This document shows positions 22,731-37,009 of a DNA stretch of 64,000 bases, piece after piece. The DNA is from Angustibacter luteus (lineage in GTDB: Bacteria; Actinomycetota; Actinomycetes; Actinomycetales; Angustibacteraceae), in contig NZ_BAABFP010000005.1 in assembly GCF_039541115.1 (NCBI RefSeq), positions 62,001-126,000 of the forward strand. The letters run 5' to 3'. Position 1 is the stretch's first letter. The number at the start of each line of letters is the position of its first letter. The notes beneath the pieces are model-generated. The model saw only the letters and a program-made list of their open reading frames with translations, had not been told where the DNA came from and did no database searches. A program made the position numbers and the translations under genes.

Positions 22731-24710
22731 GTGAGCGCTGCCAGCAGGGCAGACCAGGATCCGGTCGTGGGGTGCGTCGTCCGCGGGGACGACGCGGCGA
22801 CCGTGCTGCTGGACGCCGTCGGACGCAGGACCTCGCCGCTCGTCGGCTCGCTCTCCGGGCCGGCCGGTCGCCGTGCCGTCGTCGTCCCCGCGTTGTCCCA
22901 GCCGGCACCGGTGTGCGCCGACCTGGTCGCCACGCTGGTGGACCTGCTGCTGGACAACGGGTTCGCCGACGTCGTGGTCGGCACGGCGGCGCGGACCGGC
23001 GACCGCGACCGGGGACTCGGGTCGGTCGGCGACCTGGCCGCTGCGGCAGGTTGCACGGGGCGCACCGCGGCCGGGCGCGACTACCAGGTGGTGGACCTGC
23101 ACGAGCACATGGTCCCGGCTGCTGTCCCCTTGTCCAGCGTGCTCGCCGGGCACGCGGTCGCGGCCGCGTGGGCGGAGGCGGACGTGCGGATCCTGCTGTG
23201 CCGCAGCGTGACCGATGTGCTGGACGGGTTCGCCGGGTCGCTGGACGCCCTGTTGCTGGTCGCGCCGGGCGTGCCCGGCGCCGAGCCGGCGGACGTCGCT
23301 GCGGACCTGCTGCAGCACCACCCGCCGACGCTGGTCATCGCGGACGCCCTGGTGTCCAGCGACGGCCCGGACGGCCGACACGTGCTGCGCGAGCTGGGCA
23401 CCCAGGCGCTCGTCGTCTCGACCGACGCCCTCCGGCTGGACGTCACGCTGGCCGGCCTGCAGGGGGAGGACCCAGCGGCGTCCCGCCTGGTCCAGCGGGC
23501 CCTGACCCGGCAGCGCCCGGCGGTGGGCCGGGTGGTGGGCGACCTGACCCCGTTCCCGGGGTGGGTGCGGGCCCACCCCCTGGTGCGCGACGCGGCCCGC
23601 CGGGCCACGACGACCCCCGACCTCGCGCGGCTGCTGGCCGCTGCCACCGGTGGCCCAGATCGTGGCGCTGGCGGCGGCGACGGCAGCGACGCGGTGCTGG
23701 GTGCGTTCCGCGGGCTGCTCACCCCGTTGGTCGCGGCCGCCGACGACCCGATGGCGCGCGGGGTGCTCGTCGGCCTGCTCGGCGCCGTCTCCGCTGTGGC
23801 GCAACAGGTTGACGGCTGGACGACGACCAGCGCCAAGGGTCGGGTGCGCCGGGTCGAGGTCCCGCTGGGGTTCGACCCCTCGCACTGGGAGCCGGCCAGC
23901 TACGACGAGCTGCCCGAGCTGCTCGGCGAGCTCGACGCGCTGCTGGCCGGCGTCCCCGATGTGCCTGGCGCGATGCGGTGGTGCCTGCTCGACCGCTCCA
24001 TCGTGTTCGAGACCACCCGGGTCGTCGAGGCGCCGTTCGCCGACTTCGTCGCCCGGGTCGACGTCGCCCAGGGGATCAGCCTGATGGCCGACTACCTCGG
24101 GGGGCGGCGGGTGCCGGTCAGCGCCGACGACTCCGGCCGTCCGGTGCGGCAGGCCGAGCGCAACGTGTACCTGCCGCAGCCCAATTACCTGGCGCACTGG
24201 GGCGGGCTGCCGATCGACGTCTGCAAGATCGAGCTGGTGCAGCGTGAGCAGGGTCGGCACGCCCTGCACTGGCGCACCGTGGACAGCCTCAACGGGTCGG
24301 CAACCTACGACGACGGAACCCTGAGCTTCACGGACCTCGGGGCCGGCCGCACCCGCTTGGGCGTTCGGGGCCGCCAGCTCTTCACGCTGCCCGCCTTCTG
24401 GCAGGCCGCGGACCTCGACCGGCTGCCGGAGGTCAAGGACGACCTCGTCGAGGACGCCTACCGGCGGTTCTTCAGCACCACGTTCGACAACCTCGAGGCC
24501 TGCTACGAGGGACGGGAGTTCCGCATCGGTCGGGACGCCGATGACGAGGGTCCACTGGTGACCCAGACGCTGCAGCTGCTGCTGGAGCTGGCGTCCCAGT
24601 GGCTGAGCCAGCACCAGCCGGGCTGGACGACAGTCACCGCCACGCCTGCGCCCGTGGTCGACGTCCACGGGTTCCGGCACTTCCGCGGCGGGGCGGAGGC
24701 CGTCGGATGA
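22731..24710 (+). CDS. DUF362-like N-terminal region fused to a START/SRPBCC-like C-terminal domain
   Basis: N-terminal LVDLL.DNGF.DVVVG, YQVVDL, WAEADVRI, PTLVIADAL resembles DUF362; C-terminal ERNVYLPQPNY..IDVCKIE..WRTV.S.NGSA.YDDG is a helix-grip-like beta region. Family call by eye. Confidence 0.55.
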   Translation: MSAASRADQDPVVGCVVRGDDAATVLLDAVGRRTSPLVGSLSGPAGRRAVVVPALSQPAPVCADLVATLVDLLLDNGFADVVVGTAARTGDRDRGLGSVGDLAAAAGCTGRTAAGRDYQVVDLHEHMVPAAVPLSSVLAGHAVAAAWAEADVRILLCRSVTDVLDGFAGSLDALLLVAPGVPGAEPADVAADLLQHHPPTLVIADALVSSDGPDGRHVLRELGTQALVVSTDALRLDVTLAGLQGEDPAASRLVQRALTRQRPAVGRVVGDLTPFPGWVRAHPLVRDAARRATTTPDLARLLAAATGGPDRGAGGGDGSDAVLGAFRGLLTPLVAAADDPMARGVLVGLLGAVSAVAQQVDGWTTTSAKGRVRRVEVPLGFDPSHWEPASYDELPELLGELDALLAGVPDVPGAMRWCLLDRSIVFETTRVVEAPFADFVARVDVAQGISLMADYLGGRRVPVSADDSGRPVRQAERNVYLPQPNYLAHWGGLPIDVCKIELVQREQGRHALHWRTVDSLNGSATYDDGTLSFTDLGAGRTRLGVRGRQLFTLPAFWQAADLDRLPEVKDDLVEDAYRRFFSTTFDNLEACYEGREFRIGRDADDEGPLVTQTLQLLLELASQWLSQHQPGWTTVTATPAPVVDVHGFRHFRGGAEAVG

Positions 24711-25753
24711 GGGTCGCGGTCACAGGGGCGTCGGGGCTGGTGGGCGGGCAGGTGGCCGCCGCCGCAGCTGCGGCGGGTCACGAGGTTCGTGGGGTCGTAC
24801 GGCGGCGGGGATCGGTTGCGGCGCAGGGGATCGAGACCGTGCGGGCACCCCTGGAGGACCCGTCGGCCCTGCGGTCGGCCTTCGCCGGGTGCGATGCGGT
24901 CGTGCACTGCGCGGCGGTGTACGCGTTCGACGCCGACCGGGCCGCCGAGGTCGAGCGGGTCAACACCACCGGCACCGTCTCGGTCGTGCAGGCAGCTGCG
25001 GACGCCGGGGTCCAGCGGGTCGTCGTGACGTCGTCCTCCGTCACGCGCGGGTCGTCCCGGACGGCGGCACCGCGCACCGAGCTCGACGTCCTCGGCGACG
25101 AGCCGGCTCCCACCTACTACGCCAGCAAGGTCGAGCAGGAGCGGGTCGCGTTGCAGACCGGCCAGCGGTGCGGCGTGCCCGTGGTACTGGCACTGCCGAC
25201 GGTCGTGCTGGGCGGCCCGGCGCAGCGGCTGCTGCCCAGCAACGCGATCGTGCTGCGGTACCTGCTGGACGCCACCCGCAGCACCTACCCCGGCGGGTGC
25301 AACGTCGTGGACGCGCGAGACGTGGCGCTGGGGCACCTGCTGCTGCTCGAGCGCGGGGTGCCGGGGGAGCGGTACCTGCTCGGTGGGCAGAACGTCAGCT
25401 GGCGCACCCTGCACGCCACCGTCGCCGAGCTGGCCGGGTTGCCCGGCCCGTTCCTGGAGGTGCCACGCCCGGTCGCCCAGGCCGTGGCGAGGGTCGCCGG
25501 CGGCTGGAGCCGGCTGACGTCGTCCGCTCCGCTGGTCACGCTCGACGAGGCGGACACCGTGGGCCGCTGGTACTGGTACGACCACGGCCGGGCGGCTTTG
25601 CTGGGCTATGCCCCGCGGTCCGCCCGGGACGCGGTCGCAGCGTCCCTGGCGTGGCTGCTGGTCGGTGAGCACGTCCCCAGGTGGGTGCGCGAGGGGCTGT
25701 CGCTGTCGCCCGACGTCCGGGCCGCTCGCCCACTCGTGCCGCGCCCGCTGTAG
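24707..25753 (+). CDS. NAD-dependent epimerase/dehydratase (dihydroflavonol reductase/HpnA-like extended SDR)
   Basis: TGASGLVG, HCAA, TSSS, YYASK; ATGA overlap with the upstream gene. Confidence 0.9.
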   Translation: MRVAVTGASGLVGGQVAAAAAAAGHEVRGVVRRRGSVAAQGIETVRAPLEDPSALRSAFAGCDAVVHCAAVYAFDADRAAEVERVNTTGTVSVVQAAADAGVQRVVVTSSSVTRGSSRTAAPRTELDVLGDEPAPTYYASKVEQERVALQTGQRCGVPVVLALPTVVLGGPAQRLLPSNAIVLRYLLDATRSTYPGGCNVVDARDVALGHLLLLERGVPGERYLLGGQNVSWRTLHATVAELAGLPGPFLEVPRPVAQAVARVAGGWSRLTSSAPLVTLDEADTVGRWYWYDHGRAALLGYAPRSARDAVAASLAWLLVGEHVPRWVREGLSLSPDVRAARPLVPRPL

Positions 25754-25812: not shown

Positions 25813-26547
25813 ATGACGGTCTCCCTGCATGCCTTGTGCTTCGACGCGATCGACCCAGTCCGGGTCGCGGCCTTCTGGGCGGGCGTCCTGGGCTGGGAGC
25901 TGGCCGACGATCCGCACGATGGCACCGTGCTCCTGCCGGACGACGAGACGGGGTTCCGGCTCCGCTTCCTGGCGACCGAGGAGCAGAAGAGCAGCCAGAA
26001 CCTGATGCACTTCGACCTGACGAGCACGTCCCTCGAGGACCAGCAGCAGAAGGTCGCCCTGGCACTCGCGCTCGGCGGGCGGCACGTCGACGTCGGTCAG
26101 CGCCCCGACGAGGGTCAGGTGGTGCTCGGCGATCCTGAGGGCAACGAGTTCTGCGTGATCGAGCCGGGCAACAACTTCCTGGCGGACTGCGGGTTCGTGG
26201 GAGCGGTCTCCGGCGACGGTTCGCAGGCGGTCGGGTACTTCTGGAGCAAGGCGCTCGGCTGGCCGCTGGTCTGGGACCAGGACGAGGAGACGGCGATCCG
26301 CTCACCGCACGGCGGGCCCAAGGTCACCTGGGGCGGTCCGCCGCTGATGCCCAAGCTCGGCCGGAGCCGGGTCCGCTTCGACCTCGTGTCGCCGGTCCAC
26401 GGTGATCTGCAGGCGGAGGTGACCCGTCTGGTCTCCCTCGGTGCGACGCGGGTCGACGGAGGTGGGGGTGAGGGTGAGGCGAGCGAGGTGAGGATGGCCG
26501 ACCCGGACGGCAACGAGTTCTCGCTCCGGGTCGCCGGTGCTGCCTGA
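25813..26547 (+). CDS. VOC/glyoxalase-like protein with two tandem domains
   Basis: Repeated FW...LGW and DP(E/D)GNEF motifs, HFDL; leaderless TAGCGT-N6-ATG. Confidence 0.88.
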   Translation: MTVSLHALCFDAIDPVRVAAFWAGVLGWELADDPHDGTVLLPDDETGFRLRFLATEEQKSSQNLMHFDLTSTSLEDQQQKVALALALGGRHVDVGQRPDEGQVVLGDPEGNEFCVIEPGNNFLADCGFVGAVSGDGSQAVGYFWSKALGWPLVWDQDEETAIRSPHGGPKVTWGGPPLMPKLGRSRVRFDLVSPVHGDLQAEVTRLVSLGATRVDGGGGEGEASEVRMADPDGNEFSLRVAGAA

Positions 26548-27466
26548 CCCGATCGAGGAGGCCATCGAGGAGGCCCGCCGTCGGCAGGCCATCGCCGACC
26601 GGGACACCTCCGACTCGGTGAACCACTTCGCCAGCTCCGTACGGGCCGTGTGCCGGCGGTGGAACCTGACGGCCCAGCGGTGGCTGCCCGGCGGTGCCGG
26701 TGCGCCGACCCTCGCGGTGACGGGGGTGGACGGCACGGCGGGCGTCCTGAAGATCGCCGAACCGGGGAGCCTGGACGACGCGGTGCGGGTCATGCTCGCG
26801 GCCGACGGCCAGGGATACGCGCGGGTGCTGTGCTGGGATGCCGACCGGGGTGCGCTGCTCACCGAGCGGCTGGGCGGCGACCTCTGGACGCACGCGGCGA
26901 CGCTGGTCGAGCAGGCGCAGCTGGTCGTGCCGCTGCTGCAGCTCGCCTGGCGCGTGCCGCTCGACCGCGGCCGGCCGTTTCCGGGCAAGGCGTCCGGGCT
27001 GCTCGACATCCTCGCCGACCTGGGGCCGCGGTACGGCGCGCACCACGCTGACGTCCTCGCTCGGGCCTCGCGGTACGCGACCGAGCTGGCGGCGTCCGAG
27101 CGGCCGCAGGTGGTCTGCCACGGCGACCCGCACGCGGGGAACGTCCTGCGCCGAGGTTCGGGCTGGGCGCTCATCGACCCGGACGGGTTCGTGGGGGAGC
27201 GCGCCTACGACCTCGGGGTCGTGCTGCGCGACGGATGCCGGGAGATCGTGGCGGCGGAGGCGAGCCGGGCAGGCGCGGGCGCCTCGGTGCTGCGCCGGGC
27301 GTGCCAGGTCGCGGCCGGGCTCGCGGACGTCGACGCCGAGCAGGTGTGGCGGTGGTCGTTCGTGGAGCGGGTGACCACCGGGCTGTACCTGCGGTGGTTC
27401 GGCCACCACGACGAGTCGGCGAGCTTCCTGGGTGCGGCTGACCTGCTGAGCTCGCGCGAGAGGTAG
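26537..27466 (+). CDS. Aminoglycoside/hydroxyurea phosphotransferase family protein (APH(6)-like)
   Basis: GVLKI, ALLTERL, CHGDPHAGNVL, IDPDG..GERAYDL. Confidence 0.82.
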   Translation: MLPDPIEEAIEEARRRQAIADRDTSDSVNHFASSVRAVCRRWNLTAQRWLPGGAGAPTLAVTGVDGTAGVLKIAEPGSLDDAVRVMLAADGQGYARVLCWDADRGALLTERLGGDLWTHAATLVEQAQLVVPLLQLAWRVPLDRGRPFPGKASGLLDILADLGPRYGAHHADVLARASRYATELAASERPQVVCHGDPHAGNVLRRGSGWALIDPDGFVGERAYDLGVVLRDGCREIVAAEASRAGAGASVLRRACQVAAGLADVDAEQVWRWSFVERVTTGLYLRWFGHHDESASFLGAADLLSSRER

Positions 27467-27684: not shown

Positions 27685-28149
27685 ATGCGAGTTACAGGAA
27701 AGCGCCGGGTCGCCCTCGTGGCGGCCGCGACCGCCATCGTGCTGGTCGGCGCCGGCACCGCCTACGCGTACTGGACGACGACGGGCAGCGGGAGTGGAAG
27801 TGCCAGCACCGGCACCAGCGTTCCCGTGACGGTGGCGCAGGACAGCACCGTCGCCGGGCTCTACCCGGACGGTCCGGACGTGCCGCTCGACTTCACCATC
27901 ACCAACCCGAACCCCGGCTCGCAGTTCATCTCGTCCGTGACGATCGCCGTCACGGGGACGAGCTCCGCGAGCTGCACGGCTGCCAACTTCGCCGTGTCCC
28001 AGCCGACGATCACCGCGGGCAACATCGCGGCCGGCGCCACCTCCTACGCCAGCGCGACCACCGGCGCGGCGATCCACATGATCGACACCGGCGCCAACCA
28101 GGACGCCTGCAAGTCCGTCACGGTCAACCTGTCGTACTCGGTCAGCTGA
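27685..28149 (+). CDS. Secreted TasA/CalY-like fibre subunit (putative shaft pilin)
   Basis: Signal peptide ending AYA/YWT, GSGSG strand, LYP, TITNPN, two Cys (SCTAA, NQDACK); RBS GAGGAG. Confidence 0.65.
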   Translation: MRVTGKRRVALVAAATAIVLVGAGTAYAYWTTTGSGSGSASTGTSVPVTVAQDSTVAGLYPDGPDVPLDFTITNPNPGSQFISSVTIAVTGTSSASCTAANFAVSQPTITAGNIAAGATSYASATTGAAIHMIDTGANQDACKSVTVNLSYSVS

Positions 28150-28186
28150 CCCAGGTCCTGGCGGTTGACGAGCAGCGTGACGCGCG

Positions 28187-29002
28187 ATGACTGAGGGCGC
28201 TCAGCCGACCCCCACCCCGGAGCAGCCGGTGGCACCCCGCCGCCGAGCCGCTCTCGGGTGGTGGGTGCTGGGCGCCTTCGGCCTGCTCGCCGGCCTCGCG
28301 CTGGTCCTGGGCCAGCTGTTCCACGGGCCGGCGGCGGGCCAGGCGTCCGCCGGGTCACCGACGACGCCACCCACCACCTCGCACGCGGGCGGGCAGACTC
28401 CGTCGTTCAGCGGCACTGCCACCCCGACCGGTACCCCCACCGGTACCCCCACCGCATCCCCGACCACCACCGGCGCGGGCTCGAGCACGCGCTCGGCCGG
28501 GACGGGTCCGGTCGGATCAGGCTCCAGCGGGACCGGACCCCGCGCCACCGCGTCGGGCAGCACGACGTCCCGCCCGAGTGCCCCCTCGACCACGAGGACG
28601 TCGACCCCGCCCCCCGGTGGCGGCCCGACCATCACCCCGAGCGGCCCGGCGACGGGCTCACCGTTCACCATCACCGTGTCGGGAGTCGACGGTCCGCTGG
28701 TCCCGGGTGCGCCACGGACCTTGACCGTTCAGGTGCACAACCCGAACAGCTCCACGATCCGCCTGCTGTCCCTCACGGCGTCGGTCGGCGACCCCCAGCA
28801 CGCGGGCTGCTCCGCGGCCTGGGTGTCGGTCGGCAGCTACGCCGCCGCGCACGCCCCGTTGCTGCTCGTCGGGGCCGGCCAGTCGAGGCCGCTCTCGCTG
28901 CCGATCGTGCTCACCAACCTCGCGACGGTGAACCAGGACGGTTGCAAGGGCGTCAGCTTTCCCCTGACCTTCAACGGATCTGCCACGCAGGTGACCCCGT
29001 GA
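28187..29002 (+). CDS. Membrane-anchored protein: TM, Pro/Thr/Ser linker, pilin-like C-terminal domain
   Basis: One N-terminal TM, a long PTS-rich stalk, and a C-terminal domain sharing LVP, NPN, CSAA, NQDGCK with the upstream gene. Confidence 0.7.
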   Translation: MTEGAQPTPTPEQPVAPRRRAALGWWVLGAFGLLAGLALVLGQLFHGPAAGQASAGSPTTPPTTSHAGGQTPSFSGTATPTGTPTGTPTASPTTTGAGSSTRSAGTGPVGSGSSGTGPRATASGSTTSRPSAPSTTRTSTPPPGGGPTITPSGPATGSPFTITVSGVDGPLVPGAPRTLTVQVHNPNSSTIRLLSLTASVGDPQHAGCSAAWVSVGSYAAAHAPLLLVGAGQSRPLSLPIVLTNLATVNQDGCKGVSFPLTFNGSATQVTP

Positions 29003-31650
29003 GCGCCCGCGGCCAGCACCGCCGTCGGGACGGCCGCCCGGTGGTCCGGCTGCTCGTCGGGTCCGTGATCGGCGTGGCCGCGCTGGTCGGGATCGGCTCG
29101 GGGTCGACCGCGATCGCCAGCTGGTCCGCGACCGGTAGCGGTGCCGGCGCCGCCGCCACGGCGACCCTGGCCCCCGCCAGCGCGCTGACCGCCGCGCAGG
29201 TCGGCAACGACGTCAAGCTCACCTGGTCTCCCGCGGTGCCGCCGAGCGGAGCGACCCTGACCGGCTACTACGTGACCCGGTACGCCGGGGCCACACCGTC
29301 CAAGGCCTGTGGCACCAACCCCGCGGCCCCCGGCACGCTCCTGCCCGCCTCCGCGCTCACCTGCACGGACACCTCCCTGGTGAACGGCACCTACTCCTAC
29401 ACCGTCACCGCGGTGCTGCGGACCTGGACGGCACCGAGCGCCGCCAGCAACGCGCTGGTCGTGATCGTCGACGGATCGGCGCCCGGACTCGCCCTGGGGA
29501 TGGCCTCCGGCGCCACCGGTGCCTCACTCTCCGGGAGCACGCTCTGGTACCGCAGCGGCGGCGCGGGCAGCGTCAGCCTGACGGCGGCCGTGACCGACGG
29601 GCAGTCGGGTCCGGCGTCCGCGTCGTTCCCGCTGGTCGCGGCCAGCGGCTGGACGCACGCCGCCGAGACCGTCACCACCGGCACCGGCTCGCCGCCCACG
29701 GTCACGTACCAGTCCAGCCCGTTCGCCTGGACGGCGTCACCGGGCACCCCTGCCTCGATGGCCGTCGTCGGCCGCGACGCCGTCGGCAACGCCTCCTCGA
29801 TCTCGGTCGCGTTCGCGGCCGACGCGAGCGCCCCGACAGGCGGCTCGCTCAGCGTGAACGGCGTGGCGGCCACGGCTGCTGGGAGCCAGAGCGTCAACAA
29901 GACCGGTGCGTTCACCCTCGGCCCGCGCATCGACTACACCGCGGACGTCGGGTCCGGGCTGGCGAGCAGCCTGCTGACGCTGCAGTCCGCGTCACTGGTC
30001 AACGGCGCCTGCGGGGCCTTCGGGGCCGCCACCACGGTGACCGGCGCGCCGGCACAGAGCGGCCTGGCCACGGGGTGCTACCGCTACAGCCTGACCGGCA
30101 CCGACCGGGTGGGCAACGCGTCGGCGCTCGTGTCGACGGTGAAGGTCGACGTCACGGCGCCCACCCAGAACCTGTCGCTGGTCTCCGGCACCGGCGCGTT
30201 CCTGACCCCGGGCCGCCTGTACTTCCGTGGCACCGCGGCGGGTTCCTTCCAGCTCGCCACCACCGTCACCGACGCCGCCACCGGCCCCGCGCAGACCGTC
30301 TTCCCGGCCATCGCGACGACGGGCTGGACCCACAACGCAGAGACCGTGACCACCGGGTCCGGCACTCCGCCCAGTACGACGTACTCCTCGACGAGCTACT
30401 CCTGGACTGCCGCACCCTCGGTCCCCGGCTCCAAGAACATCATCAGCGGCGACGGCGCGGGCAACACCGTGACCACCGCGCTGGCGTTCACCCGGGACAA
30501 CGCGGCGCCCACCGGCGCAGTGCTCAAGGTGAACGGCGGGACCGCCAGCGCGGCAGGCACGTTCACCAACAGCGCCAGCGGTACCTTCGCGATCGGGACC
30601 CGCACCGACTACGTCGAGACGACCTCCACCACCGCAGCGGGTCTGGCGTCCAGCGTGCTGACCCGCGAGGCAGGAACCCTCACGGGCACGTCCTGCAGCG
30701 CCTTCGGTGCGGCGACCACGGTGACCGGCGCGCCGGCCGAGACCGGTCTGACCACCGGTTGCTACCGCTACACCCTGACCGGCACCGACAACGTGGGGAA
30801 CGTCGTCGCGATCAGCACGACCGTGCGGGTGGACCAGTCGGCTCCGACCGGCGCCGCCCTGACCGTCAACGGCCAGGTCGCCTCGGCGGCCGGCACCACG
30901 ACGACCAACGGCACCGGCAGCTGGCCGATCGACGTCCGCACCGACTGGACCGACCCGCAGTGGGCCACCACCACCAGCACCCTGACCCGGCAGACCGCCC
31001 CGATGGCCAACGGGGTCTGCGGGACCTACGGGGGATCGTCGACGATCGCTGGGACGACGGCGCAGACCGGGACGGCACGCAACTGCTACCGGTACACGCT
31101 CACCGGTACGAACACTGCGGGGCTCGTCTCGACCGTCTCGGTCGTCGTCAGGGTCAACCCGTACGTGAGCGGCGTCCAGCTGGTCAACGGATCGGGCGCC
31201 GCCGGCCGGGTCAGTGCCGGCGACCGGATGGTCGTCACGTTCTCGGACACCATGGACCCCAGCACCTTCTGCACCGCCTGGGGCACCAGCGGCGACCAGT
31301 CCATCACCGGTGACAACCAGGCCAAGGTCTCGTTGAACGACGTCGCCGCCGGGGACACGGTGACCGTGACGTCCACGCTCTGCACGTTCCGGTTCGGCAC
31401 GATGGCCCTGGGCTCCACCGGCTACACGGGCGCGACCACCACGTTCGCAGGCGCCGGCGCCAACAAGTCCACGATCGTCTGGGACGCTGCCGCCCGCACG
31501 TTGACCGTGACGTTGGGAGCGGCGTCCAGCACCTCGCCGACCGTCGTGCCGTCGAGCGCCGTCACGTTCACCCCCAGCACGGTGATCCGCAACAGCGGAG
31601 GCCTGGCGATCGGTGGCACCTTCGTGACCGGCACGATGCAGCAGTTCTGA
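28999..31650 (+). CDS. Large secreted repetitive Ig/FN3-like adhesin (883 aa)
   Basis: Start GTG 28999 (GTGA overlap); signal peptide AIA/SWS; FN3-like domain (VKLTW..GYYVTR..YSYTVTA); five D-x-(S/T/A)-A-P-linked repeats; no LPXTG or C-terminal TM. Confidence 0.8.
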   Translation: MSARGQHRRRDGRPVVRLLVGSVIGVAALVGIGSGSTAIASWSATGSGAGAAATATLAPASALTAAQVGNDVKLTWSPAVPPSGATLTGYYVTRYAGATPSKACGTNPAAPGTLLPASALTCTDTSLVNGTYSYTVTAVLRTWTAPSAASNALVVIVDGSAPGLALGMASGATGASLSGSTLWYRSGGAGSVSLTAAVTDGQSGPASASFPLVAASGWTHAAETVTTGTGSPPTVTYQSSPFAWTASPGTPASMAVVGRDAVGNASSISVAFAADASAPTGGSLSVNGVAATAAGSQSVNKTGAFTLGPRIDYTADVGSGLASSLLTLQSASLVNGACGAFGAATTVTGAPAQSGLATGCYRYSLTGTDRVGNASALVSTVKVDVTAPTQNLSLVSGTGAFLTPGRLYFRGTAAGSFQLATTVTDAATGPAQTVFPAIATTGWTHNAETVTTGSGTPPSTTYSSTSYSWTAAPSVPGSKNIISGDGAGNTVTTALAFTRDNAAPTGAVLKVNGGTASAAGTFTNSASGTFAIGTRTDYVETTSTTAAGLASSVLTREAGTLTGTSCSAFGAATTVTGAPAETGLTTGCYRYTLTGTDNVGNVVAISTTVRVDQSAPTGAALTVNGQVASAAGTTTTNGTGSWPIDVRTDWTDPQWATTTSTLTRQTAPMANGVCGTYGGSSTIAGTTAQTGTARNCYRYTLTGTNTAGLVSTVSVVVRVNPYVSGVQLVNGSGAAGRVSAGDRMVVTFSDTMDPSTFCTAWGTSGDQSITGDNQAKVSLNDVAAGDTVTVTSTLCTFRFGTMALGSTGYTGATTTFAGAGANKSTIVWDAAARTLTVTLGAASSTSPTVVPSSAVTFTPSTVIRNSGGLAIGGTFVTGTMQQF

Positions 31651-31928: not shown

Positions 31929-32456
31929 CTAGCGGACGGTTGCCGCGAACGCGGCGAGCGACTCCGACGACTGCCCGGACCGCACCCTGTCGGCGACGGC
32001 GTCCCTCGTCCGCAGCGCGCGTCGCCATCCCACGACGGGCAGGCCGACGACGTCCGCGTCGACGTCTTCGTCGACGTCCGCTGGGGTGCGGCGACGAACC
32101 TCAACGGTCCACGGACGCCGTAGCGCGACGCGGGTGAGCGCCCCGAGCACCACCAGCAGCAGCACGACGAGCCCGTCGAGGAGGAGCAGGACGAGGGGCA
32201 GCAGCAGCCACCAGAAGACCAGCCCGAAGATGATCAGGCCCACCACCACGGCGATCCCGACGAGCAGGTCGTCGATGCTGTCGACCCAGGGGACGTCCAG
32301 GGTGTCCAGCCACGACCCGCGGTCCTTGCTGCGCCTGCGGTTCTCGCGCCTGCGCCAGCCACCAAGACGCCGTGCCAGCGGTCGCCACCTCGGCACCGCC
32401 CGCACGGTCACCGCGAACGTGTCGCCCGCGGGCGTGCGAGCAGTCGTGGTCAGCAT
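31929..32456 (-). CDS. Hypothetical membrane protein
   Basis: Long hydrophobic stretch (LLVGIAVV...VVLGAL), RRPWTVE, VVGWRRA. Confidence 0.7.
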   Translation of the reverse strand: MLTTTARTPAGDTFAVTVRAVPRWRPLARRLGGWRRRENRRRSKDRGSWLDTLDVPWVDSIDDLLVGIAVVVGLIIFGLVFWWLLLPLVLLLLDGLVVLLLVVLGALTRVALRRPWTVEVRRRTPADVDEDVDADVVGLPVVGWRRALRTRDAVADRVRSGQSSESLAAFAATVR

Positions 32457-32480: not shown

Positions 32481-33164
32481 TCAGTCGACGGCCACGACAC
32501 ACACGACAGTGGCCTCCTCACCGCCGCTGACGGTGATCGTCGAACGGTAGGTCCGGCCCGCGGTGACGGTGCCGGGAGTGAGGTCGCAGGAGATCGAGAC
32601 GACCTCCTCCTTGCCGGCCGGCACGGTGGTCCTCGTCGGGTCGAGGGTGAGGGTCGCCGCCACGACGACTCCGAGCTCGTCGACGAGCGGCGAGGCCGCC
32701 AGCTCGATGCGTCGTGCTCGCGGGTGCCGGTTCGCGACGGTCAGCGAGCCGACCGCACGGTCCCCGACCACGCCGTGCAGGGTCAGCCCGGCCAGGCCCG
32801 CCGGTGCGGGCGGGGGCGGTGCCGCATGGTGCGCCGCGGGTTCGGCCGACGGGGCGTGCGCAGAGCGGCCGGTTCGCGTCCGGGCCACGTCGTCCACGAC
32901 GTTCGTGGCGACCTGGCTGCCGAGCTGGGCGACGTCGCGCGCGTACTCCGCGCCGAGCCGGCTCGCGCTGCGCCAGTAGCGCGTCCCCTCCCGCCGCGCG
33001 GCCTCGGCGTAGGCCCGGCTCGCGCTGGCCGTGTCCAGCTCGCCGCCGATCGCCGAGCGCAGCAGGTCCACGGATGCCCTGGCCCACGCCGCCTGCGCCT
33101 GCCACGCCTCGCGGGTCACGTCGAGCCATCGAGTCAGCTCCGGATCGCGTTCGTTGTCGGGCAT
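32481..33164 (-). CDS. Hypothetical protein: amphipathic helical N-terminus plus Ig-like C-terminal domain
   Basis: Ala/Arg-rich helical first 95 aa, Pro linker, beta-rich domain (GSLTVAN..VPAG..YRSTITV); [11 protein letters not shown]. Confidence 0.75.
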   Translation of the reverse strand: MPDNERDPELTRWLDVTREAWQAQAAWARASVDLLRSAIGGELDTASASRAYAEAARREGTRYWRSASRLGAEYARDVAQLGSQVATNVVDDVARTRTGRSAHAPSAEPAAHHAAPPPPAPAGLAGLTLHGVVGDRAVGSLTVANRHPRARRIELAASPLVDELGVVVAATLTLDPTRTTVPAGKEEVVSISCDLTPGTVTAGRTYRSTITVSGGEEATVVCVVAVD

Positions 33165-33174
33165 CGCGCCTCCC

Positions 33175-33777
33175 TCAGCAGCAACCGCAGTCGCACGTCA
33201 CGTCCACCGCGTCGCACGAGGCCGGGTGGACGACGACCGCCACACGTTGCGGGCGTGCGCACCCCTCGAACCTGATGTCAGCGTAGGCGCTCGCGCAGCT
33301 CTGCACATCGCCCAGCGGTTCACGCTGCTCGCCGTCCTTGCCTGCGCTCACAGCGACCAGGAGCCGCACGACCTTGCGCTCGCAGCCCTGCAACGTCAGT
33401 GGCGAGTCGACGTCGAACCGGGCCTGCACCTGCACGGGCTCGTCGCTGCACAGGTGCCACGGGCCCACCTCGAGGCTGACCTCGCGCTCGCGGTGCCGGG
33501 GGTTGCGCAGCGAGAAGGCCAGCACCCGGCGTTCACCGGCGCGTGCGTGCAGCACGATGTCCGCCTGCGGGATGCAGCACGAGCACGGGTCGCCGCAGCC
33601 GCAGTCGTCGTGCGACTCCGTGCAGCCGCAGTCCTTCTGGCGGCCCTGCGGCTCGACCGTCCAGCTGCGCTGCAGCGAGCGCACGGCGCTGGAGGAGTCG
33701 TCCCACCAGCGCTGCATCGCATCGGCCCAGCCGGTGGCGAGGTCGGACAGGACGTCGGTCGGTGCGCTGCTGCTCAT
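33175..33777 (-). CDS. Cys-rich hypothetical protein (16 Cys, ends TCDCGCC)
   Basis: Real start ATG 33777 (RBS AAGGAAG, overlap with the upstream stop) inside ORF 33175..34620. Confidence 0.78.
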   Translation of the reverse strand: MSSSAPTDVLSDLATGWADAMQRWWDDSSSAVRSLQRSWTVEPQGRQKDCGCTESHDDCGCGDPCSCCIPQADIVLHARAGERRVLAFSLRNPRHREREVSLEVGPWHLCSDEPVQVQARFDVDSPLTLQGCERKVVRLLVAVSAGKDGEQREPLGDVQSCASAYADIRFEGCARPQRVAVVVHPASCDAVDVTCDCGCC

Positions 33778-34439
33778 CGGCTCTTCCTTGCTGTGGTGGG
33801 CTTCTCGTCGGACGGCAGCACCACGACGACCAGCGTCGCGGTGCCGACCGGGATGCGGGCCTGGTGACGTCGGGTCGGGTCGAGGTCGTCGGGGACGCTC
33901 ACGTGCCCGGTGGCGTCGACCGTGACCCCCGGCTCGACGGTGACGGGGGAGTCCAGGCCGACCTCGACGTCGAGGTCGCCCACCACGCCGTTCGTCCAGA
34001 GCCGGGCCCGCAGCACCGACGCGATGGGCACGGACACGTTGCCCGCGTTGGTGATCCGCACGCTCAGCGGTTGCTGGCCGCGCTGCGCGAGCAGGCGGGA
34101 CGGGCTGATCCGCAGGTCGAGATCGGCCTCGACCTGCAGCACGGCGTCGCGCGCGACACCGGCCACCTCGAGCTCGACCGGGTAGCTGCCCGGCGCAGTC
34201 GATGCCGGCAGGCTCACGCTGACCGGCACGGTGCCCGTGGACCCAGCGGCCAGACGGGCACCGACCCGCGCGGTCGTCGTCCGGACGTCGGGCCCGCGGA
34301 CGGTCGCCGACCTGACCGTCACTGCGCGGTCGCCCTCGTTCGTCACGCTCACGGTGGCGTCGAGGTGGCGCGGCGTCCCGCGCAGCAGGATGGGCGGCGG
34401 GGCGTCCGCGGCCTTGGTCGTGCGACGTTTCGTTGCCAC
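33774..34439 (-). CDS. Hypothetical protein with two Ig-like beta-sandwich repeats
   Basis: Two V/I-T-N-x-G motifs (VTNEGD, ITNAGN), PGSYPVEL, VEPG; no signal peptide. Confidence 0.75.
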   Translation of the reverse strand: MATKRRTTKAADAPPPILLRGTPRHLDATVSVTNEGDRAVTVRSATVRGPDVRTTTARVGARLAAGSTGTVPVSVSLPASTAPGSYPVELEVAGVARDAVLQVEADLDLRISPSRLLAQRGQQPLSVRITNAGNVSVPIASVLRARLWTNGVVGDLDVEVGLDSPVTVEPGVTVDATGHVSVPDDLDPTRRHQARIPVGTATLVVVVLPSDEKPTTARKSR

Positions 34440-34448
34440 GTCGCCCGC

Positions 34449-34877
34449 CTACCGGTCCACGACGATCGGCCGCGCCCGGTCGGGTCGCACGTGGGTGGAC
34501 GTCTGGCCGCAGACACTGAGCGAGAACAGCTCCAGCCCGAGCACCGACCACCCCCAGCGCTGTTCGTAGGGCGTGCACACCTCCGTCGGTGGCGGTGGGG
34601 CGAGCTCCAGCCGGACGCACGAGTCGACGGCCACCGGCTTCAGGTCGATGCTGGACGTCGTCTCCAGTGGCGCGAGAGTGATCCGTGCGTCGGAGCTGAC
34701 CGTGCTGTCCGTGTGCACCTTCGAGTCCGACGTCACCGCGGACGTGGTGTTCAGGCTCGTCCCGCCAGCCAGCGTGGTCGTCGTCCCGCCGTCCACCGTG
34801 AGGTTCATGTCCTCCAACCCGGCCAGGTCGGTGGTCAGGCCACCAGAGACGTTGGTGTCGATCGAGTAGTCCGCCAT
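34449..34877 (-). CDS. Thr/Ser-rich beta-strand hypothetical protein
   Basis: Start ATG 34877 overlapping the upstream TGA (TGATG); MADYSIDTNV...WGWSVLGLELFSLSVCGQT. Confidence 0.75.
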   Translation of the reverse strand: MADYSIDTNVSGGLTTDLAGLEDMNLTVDGGTTTTLAGGTSLNTTSAVTSDSKVHTDSTVSSDARITLAPLETTSSIDLKPVAVDSCVRLELAPPPPTEVCTPYEQRWGWSVLGLELFSLSVCGQTSTHVRPDRARPIVVDR

Positions 34878-36151
34878 CAGGGCGTCCCTTCCGTTGGGCT
34901 GACTGGGCTGACTGGGCTGACTGGGTTCACCAGGTAGGAGTGGTGGAAGCCGAGCCGGGGGTCGCCCCAGCTCGGTACCCGGGGGTCGAACTCCTGCAGC
35001 TCGGGCATGGGTATCCGCGTGCGCAGCTCCAGCGACGGGTAGTCGTACACGGTGATGTGGTTCTGGCCGCGGTTCGCCGTGAACAACAGGGTCTGGTCGG
35101 CGGACAGCTGGCACGCGTAGATGCCGTCCAGCAGGGCACCCCGGCTCACCTTCATCGCGCCGACGTACAGGTGCGCGTTGGCGAACACACTGCCGCGGGA
35201 CAGCGCCTCGGTGACGGTGGACGCCGCCTGGCGGGCGTGCGTCCACTGGTCCAGCGCGCCGGGGTGCTCGTCGATGATCCGGTGCTGGGACAACGTCGCC
35301 AGGTCGACCAGCACGACCGTGTGGCTGCCACCGGTGCAGAAGATGAGCTCGCGGTCGGAGATGGTCACGTCCGAGTTGATGTGCGCCGGCAGGTCCCGGT
35401 CGGCTGACCAGTGCCGCAGCACCTGCCCGGACTCCGCGTCGACCTCGTACGCGTACTCGCGAAGGTACGACATTCCCCAGTGCTGCCAGTCGGTTCCGTC
35501 GGCCGGCGCCACCCGGAACGACAGGGCGTAGAACACGTCGAGCACCGGGTGGCACACCAGGTGCCAGCACGTGGTGGGGAGCTCGACCCGTTGCACCGTG
35601 CCGGTCCGCGTGTCCAGGATGCCGACCTCACGTGCCTCGCCCCGGCTGGGGTGGTCCATTCCGCCGTACACGACGTAACGGCCGGAGGCGCTGCGCTTCA
35701 TGGCGTGCGGCACCTTCAGGCCGTGCGGGGCGATCTGCTCGGCCTTGGTCAGCCGGTTGACGTCGAAGCGCCACAGGTGCTCACCGATCGCCGTGATGAA
35801 CTCGGTCTCGTCCAGCCAGACCAGGTGCGTGCTGCCCTTGATCGTGGTGTCCGGCACCGCAAAGCGCAGGGTCGAGACGCGGTCCGCCTCGTCCAGGGTC
35901 TGCGGGTCGTAGAAGAGCAGGTGCTGGCCGGTGTTGCCGAGGAACCCCAGCCGACGCGACGGATCCACCGAGGGGGCGTGGCCGCCCGCGACCCCGCCGA
36001 AGTAGGTGATCTTGTAGGCGTGGTCGCCGGTGACGGGGTCGTACCGGAAGAGGCACACGCCGGCGCGGCCCTCAAGACCGTTGAGCCCGTTGCCGTCCAG
36101 GGCGATGTGGAAGGCGTAGGGGTACTCCCGCATCGACCCGACGCCGCTCAC
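34877..36151 (-). CDS. His-rich beta-propeller protein, putative metalloenzyme
   Basis: Periodic blade-like motifs (GGHAPSV, GSTHLVW, VPHAMKRS, CWHLVCHP, PAHINSD, GIYACQLS, GFHHS), ANRGQNHITVYD; start either GTG 36151 or ATG 36133. Confidence 0.72.
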   Translation of the reverse strand: MSGVGSMREYPYAFHIALDGNGLNGLEGRAGVCLFRYDPVTGDHAYKITYFGGVAGGHAPSVDPSRRLGFLGNTGQHLLFYDPQTLDEADRVSTLRFAVPDTTIKGSTHLVWLDETEFITAIGEHLWRFDVNRLTKAEQIAPHGLKVPHAMKRSASGRYVVYGGMDHPSRGEAREVGILDTRTGTVQRVELPTTCWHLVCHPVLDVFYALSFRVAPADGTDWQHWGMSYLREYAYEVDAESGQVLRHWSADRDLPAHINSDVTISDRELIFCTGGSHTVVLVDLATLSQHRIIDEHPGALDQWTHARQAASTVTEALSRGSVFANAHLYVGAMKVSRGALLDGIYACQLSADQTLLFTANRGQNHITVYDYPSLELRTRIPMPELQEFDPRVPSWGDPRLGFHHSYLVNPVSPVSPVSPTEGTP

Positions 36152-36409: not shown

Positions 36410-37009
36410 ATGCACGACTTCGGCAACGCGAAGGTGTCGCGTGGTCGCCGGATTCTGGTGCTGAGCAGTGACGAGTTCGGCGCGGACGTCGCCGGTCGAC
36501 TCACCGGGTTGGGGTCCGTCGTGGTGCACGACGTCAGCGCCGACACGCACCCGAGCTCGTGGCCGTCGGCCGACCTGATCGTGTTGGCCGGGCGGGACCG
36601 GCCGTGCGTGGCCGATGCGGTCGACGAGACCTCGTTCCAGCGTGGCCTTCCCTGGTTCCCGGTCAGCGTGCACGGCAGCGAGATCCAGGTGGGTCCCGTG
36701 GTCCGCCCGGGGCACAGTGCCTGCCACGGGTGCCTGACCCGTGGTCCCGAACCGCGCAGGGCGGCACTGCCGGCGGACGAGTACGCCCAGGACCACGTCG
36801 GGATCGCGGTGGGCATGGCCTACACGGCCGCCCGCGAGGCCTTCGGCGAGCTGGGTGCGACCGACGTCGGCGGCACGGTGCGAGTGTTCAGCCGGGCCGG
36901 TGGCGCGCACCGTCGGGCCGGCGCGGTCACGGCCGCGTCCGCGGACGACGACTGCCGCCGGTGTGGTGGGACGGCCGCCCCGCAGCCGGTGGGGACCGCC
37001 GTCAGCTGA
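36410..37009 (+). CDS. ThiF/E1-like TOMM docking-scaffold-type protein (orphan)
   Basis: LPWFPV..VGPVVRPGHSACHGC and a C-terminal CRRC; start ATG 36410 after RBS GAGGTGG. Confidence 0.7.
   Translation: MHDFGNAKVSRGRRILVLSSDEFGADVAGRLTGLGSVVVHDVSADTHPSSWPSADLIVLAGRDRPCVADAVDETSFQRGLPWFPVSVHGSEIQVGPVVRPGHSACHGCLTRGPEPRRAALPADEYAQDHVGIAVGMAYTAAREAFGELGATDVGGTVRVFSRAGGAHRRAGAVTAASADDDCRRCGGTAAPQPVGTAVS

Follow-up and report, generated by a model that had tools for sequence, protein, structure and literature searches.

The operon described here occupies positions 32,481 to 36,151 of a 64,000-nucleotide stretch of the Angustibacter luteus genome (contig NZ_BAABFP010000005.1, positions 62,001 to 126,000), which we call the window, and comprises five minus-strand genes, A to E, that belong with two further genes, G and H, at 22.7–25.8 kb. 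Gene A (34877..36151, −) encodes a propeller protein starting either at GTG 36151 (424 aa) or at ATG 36133 (418 aa), the latter being the start position in most homologues and the one from which residues are numbered below. After it come B (34449..34877, −; 142 aa), a beta-repeat protein; C (33774..34439, −; 221 aa), with tandem immunoglobulin (Ig)-like domains of the NEW3/FixG_C type; D (33175..33777, −; 200 aa), with an N-terminal amphipathic helix, a Cys/His-rich linker and an Ig domain; and E (32481..33164, −; 227 aa), which joins an amphipathic helix pair of about 85 residues to an Ig domain. The junctions, in order from A to E, are a 1-nt overlap, a 9-nt gap, a 4-nt overlap and a 10-nt gap, and these, like the strand and sizes of the genes, are exactly as an earlier note on this DNA gave them. 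The GC content at third codon positions (GC3) is 0.90–0.94 for each of the five. That note also said that two of the genes are masked by long mis-started open reading frames (ORFs); these are B and D, and GC3 in the upstream extensions of the ORFs is 0.46 and 0.56, so the extensions are off-frame.

The proteins have marked compositions, A containing 22 His and D 16 Cys, with Thr and Ser making up 26% of B. A crude hydropathy scan (not SignalP) found no transmembrane-like window in A–E (maximum 19-residue mean 1.53) and no signal-like stretch within the first 40 residues, in agreement with the earlier view that all five lack signal peptides and transmembrane helices. That none belongs to a named family holds for A, B, D and E though not for C, since the only match of A–E above cut-off in Pfam and NCBIfam is NPCBM_assoc on C (34.5 bits). 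A promoter and terminator scan of the operon gave no match. The closest named relative of A, at 93%, is from Angustibacter. The operon is not a chance arrangement: when its conservation and co-location were checked, the gene set was found to recur in other genomes.

The AlphaFold2 model of A is confident (pLDDT 92.4) and shows a seven-bladed beta-propeller covering residues 3–406 of 418. Its structural neighbours, at Z 25–30 and 8–16% identity, are YVTN proteins, lactonases, a cycloisomerase, hydrazine synthase, NosZ and SBP56 (for instance, Z 30.5 to 1l0q and 28.4 to 6nau), and Foldseek additionally returns NirN and amine dehydrogenase. This places A within the YVTN/lactonase/cd1 propeller clan, which the ten best family-assigned Atlas matches share. 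The Pfam Lactonase family scores 11.2 bits on A against a cut-off of 21.7, and a profile of A found nothing significant among PDB sequences. The family has 200 representatives at 50% clustering, and no homologue was found on plasmids.

Residues H52, H103, H143, H191, H251 and H397/398 of A lie at the start of the inner strand in six blades, with Y339 at the equivalent place in the seventh. The ring histidines are invariant in 89/89 close homologues and retained in 13–16 of 16 distant ones, down to 22% identity; Y339 is replaced by His in a few homologues, and the Cys residues of A are not conserved. From this conserved ring of blade-start histidines, with Tyr339, we strongly infer that the propeller axis holds a metal site, and A is probably a metalloenzyme of an unnamed family, much as it had looked in the earlier note. 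A distant homologue (about 31% identity; P0158, P0285) with most of the His ring kept is annotated in Patescibacteria metagenome-assembled genomes (MAGs).

Three families of His-ligated propellers invite comparison. NosZ and SBP56 hold a His-ligated copper on the propeller axis. A shares their propeller clan (Z 26.2, rmsd 3.0 and 304 residues aligned for NosZ; Z 25.7, rmsd 3.2 and 329 aligned for SBP56/methanethiol oxidase), but it is 8–9% identical to them, consists of a single domain without a signal-like N-terminus, and has lipid-type neighbours. HHalign gave 3.5% against five SBP56 proteins, and the Pfam scan of A matched neither PF05694 (SBP56) nor PF03055 (RPE65). We rejected A as a NosZ, the propeller leaving no CuA domain and the protein having no signal-like stretch. 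The carotenoid oxygenase plan, as PMC6097328 describes it, has a metal, ligated by His, on the axis of a seven-bladed propeller, with a helical substrate site beside it; on that description the RPE65 family and A share the propeller, a central conserved His and a helical insert. The hydrophobic substrates and aldehyde products of that family would also fit the genes neighbouring A. However, RPE65 has four His where A has six His and a Tyr at equivalent blade positions, and HHalign gave 0.3% against only two RPE65 sequences. No carotenoid oxygenase is among the 50 VIA structure matches listed for A, which does not count against the relationship. Judged by sequence against these small comparison sets, A lies outside the RPE65, SBP56 and NosZ families.

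Gene G (22731..24710, +) encodes a LarA-fold (DUF362) domain, a helical linker, a StAR-type START domain and a C-terminal DxxGFxH motif, and H (24707..25753, +), which overlaps it by 4 nt, a short-chain dehydrogenase/reductase (SDR) of the extended type. The model of G (AlphaFold2, pLDDT 92.8) has a LarA fold at residues ~18–334 (Z 16.3, rmsd 3.1, 214 aligned to LarA 9eia; range Z 15–16). DUF362 and DUF2088 form one clan (CL0471, the LarA superfamily) according to PMC11770544; G shares the fold of that superfamily but fuses it to the START domain. Residues 384–596 adopt the helix-grip START fold (Z 14.7, rmsd 3.0, 180 aligned to STARD4), with the fatty-acid-binding START domain of ACOT11 as best Foldseek match (E 5e-7). 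The fold is nearest to sterol-, fatty-acid- and carotenoid-binding proteins. The START-domain profile found nothing significant among PDB sequences. Invariant positions number 37 in the START part and 6 in the DUF362 part, the latter being poorly conserved in actinobacteria. H is of the HpnA/SdmB/OleD/cinnamoyl-CoA reductase type, with PDB 3wj7 and cinnamoyl-CoA reductases nearest; it scores best on HpnA, then SdmB and OleD, all below cut-offs (HpnA 206.7 against 367.65 bits). Of the named families nearest to H, HpnA, SdmB and OleD act on lipids.

Relatives of A were collected as 48 GTDB loci and the best 80 of 340 metagenome stretches, and the resulting 128 loci were profile-searched; genome-wide searches covered 41 relatives and 401 phylum genomes, sets that include the source genome (G000) and overlap the loci. 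Among the 48 GTDB loci a START-like domain is found in 41, DUF362 in 29, SDR in 31, E in 33, B in 30, C and D in 28 each, and a different gene set, type II, in 11. All seven loci without a START domain stop at a contig end. In the genome-wide sets A and the START domain occur in the same 5/41 relatives and the same 2/401 phylum genomes. A therefore almost always travels with a START-fold domain. In the source genome A, B and the START domain are each single-copy, and D and E match only each other. B is found in four of the five A-positive relatives, the fifth having a type II-like locus. A second copy of the START domain (L183, G040:C1:292268-293029) lies ~830 kb from a type II-like cluster, and none of the other cluster genes was detected in its surroundings.

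The earlier note had asked about co-occurrence with the DUF362/SDR pair, and the counts above answer it: G and H belong with the operon, and the unit extends beyond the five genes. In most relatives G and H abut E head-on, and in the window ~6.7 kb of other genes lie between them. Nodosilinea (L019) has them on a single strand in the order G-H-S-B-C-D-E-A, and a Fibrobacterota MAG (L048) has A-G-H-S-B-C-D-E; S denotes a second, small gene of START-like type. Since A to E share their loci with G and H and can stand with them on one strand, we conclude that the seven genes form one larger system. The full set is found in cyanobacteria, an acidobacterium and the Fibrobacterota MAG as well.

Two kinds of locus can be distinguished. 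Type I loci hold A, E, G and H, with B-C-D optional. Type II loci hold, with some rearrangement, an aldehyde dehydrogenase (ALDH), an acyl-CoA dehydrogenase (ACAD), a class III aminotransferase, a cyclase, START, A, MMPL and START; B–E, H and DUF362 were found in none of the 11. They come from Saccharothrix, Crossiella, Actinosynnema, MAGs and one Burkholderiales, and form one clade in a quick version of the A tree (SH-aLRT 100; 12 rows). The aminotransferase is nearest to putrescine aminotransferase and PigE. Across the 48 GTDB loci MMPL and B–E/H are mutually exclusive. The DxxGFxH motif at the end of G (residues 644–650, window 24660–24680), which sits after a variable linker, is likewise divided: it is present in 29/31 type I proteins and in 0/21 type II START proteins.

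The system resembles the hopanoid accessory genes HpnA/HpnN/HpnO and the sterol demethylase SdmB in the scores of H and in the class III aminotransferase and MMPL/RND transporter of type II. A squalene-hopene cyclase scored above cut-off in 0/5 A-positive genomes (3/41 overall), so an endogenous hopanoid substrate is unlikely in these five; with the HpnA score of H so far below its cut-off, the hopanoid pathway was rejected as an identity.

When type I is counted as the 59 loci in which A and H both occur, the whole of B to E is present in 40, E alone in 11, and none of the four could be detected in eight; a partial B-C-D is never seen. B-C-D is thus all-or-none in 59/59, and E is retained in 51/59. 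Seven of the eight loci without E are metagenome contigs shorter than 9 kb; in the one long locus among them (L110) a short helical ORF with a basic tail was seen by eye. On the A tree the E-only state requires five changes, four of them forced by starred branches, and in five E-only genomes B and D were not found elsewhere (the B profile detects the source genome and three relatives). B-C-D is therefore an optional block, gained or lost as a unit and lost repeatedly. Three loci (L027, L049 and L050) have frameshifts affecting A to D, G or H, due either to sequencing error or to decay.

The B–E proteins look non-enzymatic, as had been noted before, with Ig domains, amphipathic helices and a beta-repeat. 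B carries ~6-residue Thr/Ser repeats in variable number followed by a conserved C-terminal hairpin; its hydrophobic/polar alternation is beta-like (0/1000 shuffles as high), its period-6 identity is 0.18 compared to 0.105 when shuffled, and homologues are 121–180 aa long. It is possibly a beta-solenoid or fibre. The Atlas monomer model is poorly folded (pLDDT 0.48). Of its 339 homologues, the best 120 listed include none with a Pfam domain or functional name; a B profile found nothing significant among PDB sequences, and no relative was found in viral contigs. C gave only weak Ig-type matches to PDB (E at least 0.0015). Between the Ig proteins HHalign probabilities are 97.9% for D–E, 87.5% for C–E and 4.1% for C–D, from which C, D and E are taken to carry related Ig domains and D to be a paralogue of E.

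In D the Ig domain is flanked by conserved Cys and the linker is hypervariable and rich in Cys and His, with 7–26 Cys and 2–29 His among 50 homologues and long His-Asp runs in some. In one homologue (L051:12427-13755), of 443 aa in total, the linker is a very long series of His-Asp repeats, either an extreme case of a metal-binding tail or an artefact of assembly. The N-terminal helices of D and E are amphipathic (0/1000 shuffles as high), with hydrophobic moments of 0.40–0.44 (D 0.40), compared to 0.21–0.36 for the helices of G and 0.28 for 25 true phasins. In the 11 loci examined where E is reduced, the helix pair is the part that survives, and ten of the 11 short forms have a basic tail with 7–12 Lys/Arg in the last 30 residues. 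A profile of E found nothing significant among PDB sequences.

The features of E recall proteins of the lipid-droplet surface. Phasins (such as PhaP and PhaF) and MLDS are, like E, small proteins with strongly amphipathic helices, and in PhaF and MLDS the helices come with a Lys/Arg-rich tail, terminal as in the short forms of E. Phasin_2 is the commonest weak Pfam match among N-terminal segments of E (8/42). E and D differ from phasins and MLDS, however, in adding an Ig domain and in being linked to a propeller/START/SDR set, and they show no significant sequence or profile homology to them; no polyhydroxyalkanoate or triacylglycerol synthase recurs among the annotated neighbour families. According to bioRxiv 10.1101/2020.05.18.103093, MLDS is a droplet-resident DNA-binding protein of actinobacteria. 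On its sequence features, E is a candidate lipid-surface anchor.

Taken together, we tentatively favour, while giving it somewhat less than an even chance, a lipid-modifying enzyme module whose product would leave through MMPL in type II and which E would hold on a lipid inclusion in type I, B-C-D serving optionally as scaffold or metal store. A would hold Fe or Cu, possibly in a multinuclear site, on the axis of its propeller, and the START domain would present a hydrophobic substrate to it, which A would oxidise or cleave to a carbonyl or aldehyde intermediate. In type I, H would reduce this intermediate and the product would stay inside the cell; in type II, the ALDH, aminotransferase and ACAD would process it and the product would cross the membrane via MMPL. 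E (and D) would use their amphipathic helices to attach to a lipid inclusion or a membrane monolayer, like phasins or MLDS, and their Ig domains would recruit the enzymes. B-C-D would extend this anchor into a scaffold, with the Cys/His stretches of D binding or storing metal. In a more elaborate version, which would make the system a new kind of lipid-inclusion apparatus in bacteria, E and D coat a hydrophobic droplet and display their Ig domains, a B fibre and C cross-link them, and the lattice docks a new multinuclear His-Tyr propeller oxidase with its START carrier. We regard this as rather unlikely, and would give no better prospects to the idea that goes with it, namely that the enzyme core was switched in evolution between MMPL export in type II and storage in an intracellular compartment in type I.

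The favoured lipid module draws support from the joint distribution of A and the START domain, the mutual exclusion of MMPL and B–E/H, the single clade of type II with its MMPL and aminotransferase genes, the lipid- and carotenoid-binding relatives of the START fold, the lipid-active relatives of H, the amphipathic helix pair that E retains when reduced, the weak Phasin_2 matches and the carotenoid oxygenase plan described above. A wax ester synthase/diacylglycerol acyltransferase (WS/DGAT) is also present in 5/5 type I genomes tested, a count that lacks a negative control among related genomes. The earlier suggestion of metal or sulfur handling survives for metal, in the Cys/His-rich variable stretches of D; the invariant partner of A is a lipid-binding START domain, which argues for lipid chemistry rather than sulfur.

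Several observations speak against this module, the missing WS/DGAT control among them. Type I loci come mostly from one actinobacterial group, hence their counts are not independent, and eight of the 59 have no detectable E. The closest solved folds of A include lactonases and a cycloisomerase, and its helical insert is weakly amphipathic (212/1000 shuffles as high in the window protein). Some proteins with START/SRPBCC folds are catalytic cyclases, and the present domain has 37 invariant positions. An ordinary oligomerising bundle would fit the amphipathic helices of E as well, and moments of 0.33–0.36 occur in two short helices of G. HHalign against 25 betaproteobacterial phasins gave 0.9% (E 0.057), and matches to PF09361 among the E N-terminal segments are all below cut-off (best 19.1 bits against 24.9), so membership of E in the phasin family was rejected.

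The earlier note had placed a self-assembling five-gene structure housing the enzyme at the centre of the system. In its present form this would have B, C, D and E assemble into a shell, sheet or filament with A, G and H enclosed in it or carried on it, and in its favour are the tight translational coupling, the all-or-none behaviour of B-C-D, the related Ig domains of C, D and E, the spread of the full set to cyanobacteria, an acidobacterium and a Fibrobacterota MAG, and the beta-repeat of B, variable in number and poorly modelled as a monomer. Small non-enzymatic genes are likewise coupled to enzyme genes in bacterial microcompartments (BMC), encapsulins and gas vesicles, and the hairpin turn of B locally resembles that of GvpA. 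Cargo-loading peptides are conserved short motifs after a variable linker, as is the C-terminal motif of G. That motif, however, persists where B-C-D has been lost (L014, L016 and L035), A is encoded without B–E in 11/48 loci, and B-C-D is missing while E is kept in 11/59 type I loci, with B and D not found elsewhere in the five E-only genomes; that B-C-D is dispensable also sets the system apart from BMC, encapsulins and gas vesicles. B–E had no match to a BMC, encapsulin or gas vesicle domain in Pfam or NCBIfam at E up to 1, and B as a GvpA-like protein was rejected (HHalign 0.5% against four GvpA-family proteins; no PF00741 match in the source genome). A phage structural module had no support either, the six window proteins tested having no PHROG match at E up to 0.05. 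A complex prediction of C, E and D with B as partner scored 0.00 in two runs, with the fold of B uncertain and controls absent, and counts neither for nor against assembly. The shell as core of the system does not hold up; we consider assembly of B–E around the enzymes unlikely, and a closed protein shell, too, an improbable outcome that ranks below the lipid module.

It is equally doubtful that there is no scaffold at all, with everything cytosolic, B-C-D delivering metal to A or to the LarA-fold domain or helping it mature, and E acting as a soluble oligomeric chaperone or activator. Metallochaperones have His-rich tails, which the Cys and His content of D and its His-Asp runs resemble, the His-rich site of A would require metal loading, and repeated loss of B-C-D fits an accessory role. 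Yet type II has the same His-ring enzyme without any of B–E, the LarA-fold domain is weakly conserved, with its six invariant positions, and the beta-repeats of B and amphipathic helices of D and E would be left unexplained. Most doubtful of all is that A is a hydrolase, lyase or cycloisomerase which, with a START-fold catalytic cyclase, makes or degrades a small specialised metabolite instead of a stored lipid, B–E being unrelated accessory proteins. The top enzyme folds for A are indeed 6-phosphogluconolactonase (Z 28.4) and muconate lactonizing enzyme (Z 28.0), aromatase/cyclases are among the START matches, and the rare, patchy distribution is as in specialised metabolism. But six His and a Tyr/His at equivalent blade positions suggest a multi-ligand metal site, the START domain resembles the long StAR type (Z 13–14.7) over the short cyclase type (Z ~10), and no polyketide synthase or nonribosomal peptide synthetase gene recurs among the annotated neighbour families. 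An anti-phage system had no support, PADLOC giving only two short partial matches (E 0.003–0.008).

No family library or structure search that we used names this system, and no paper on the cluster was found in open-access full text, the DUF362 literature included. While the folds of the parts are known, the enzyme family to which A belongs appears to be undescribed, as do the START subfamily, the proteins B, D and E, and the way all of these are combined; the earlier proposal of an undescribed system stands in that a conserved, unannotated multi-gene set was found which profile searches assign to no known pathway. A probably represents a propeller metalloenzyme family that has no name, unusual in its ring of six His and a Tyr and with a StAR-type START domain as near-obligate partner, and the pairing of the same core with either an MMPL exporter or coat-like proteins provides a natural experiment. 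If E is a droplet anchor, it would found a new family of bacterial lipid-droplet proteins within a self-contained droplet metabolon, and if B–E assemble, they would form a new protein compartment; read most plainly, this would still be a new pathway, all parts of which are annotated as hypothetical. Its hosts include named cultured soil actinobacteria as well as cyanobacterial and acidobacterial genomes.

Other genes surround the operon in the window. Upstream of A, the divergent ORF 36410–37009 (+; GC3 0.89) weakly matches TIGR03882, a TOMM leader-binding/ThiF-like family, at 26.3 bits against 36.9, and its GC3 is like that of coding sequence. It occurs in 0/128 related loci, no YcaO match exists in the genome, and it is for these reasons probably an orphan remnant of a cluster for a ribosomally synthesised and post-translationally modified peptide. 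A membrane-protein gene (31929–32456, −) follows E by 24 nt on the same strand; it was not found in the 128 related loci and is therefore not a conserved part. Between H and E lie, at 25813–27466 (−), two genes that by their motifs look double VOC/glyoxalase-like and phosphotransferase-like, and at 27685–31650 (+) three secreted-looking Thr/Ser-rich beta proteins of 154, 271 and ~1000 aa, possibly a fibre or surface module. The 154-aa protein of this trio, which has no NCBIfam match, recurs at the equivalent place in one related locus (L184).

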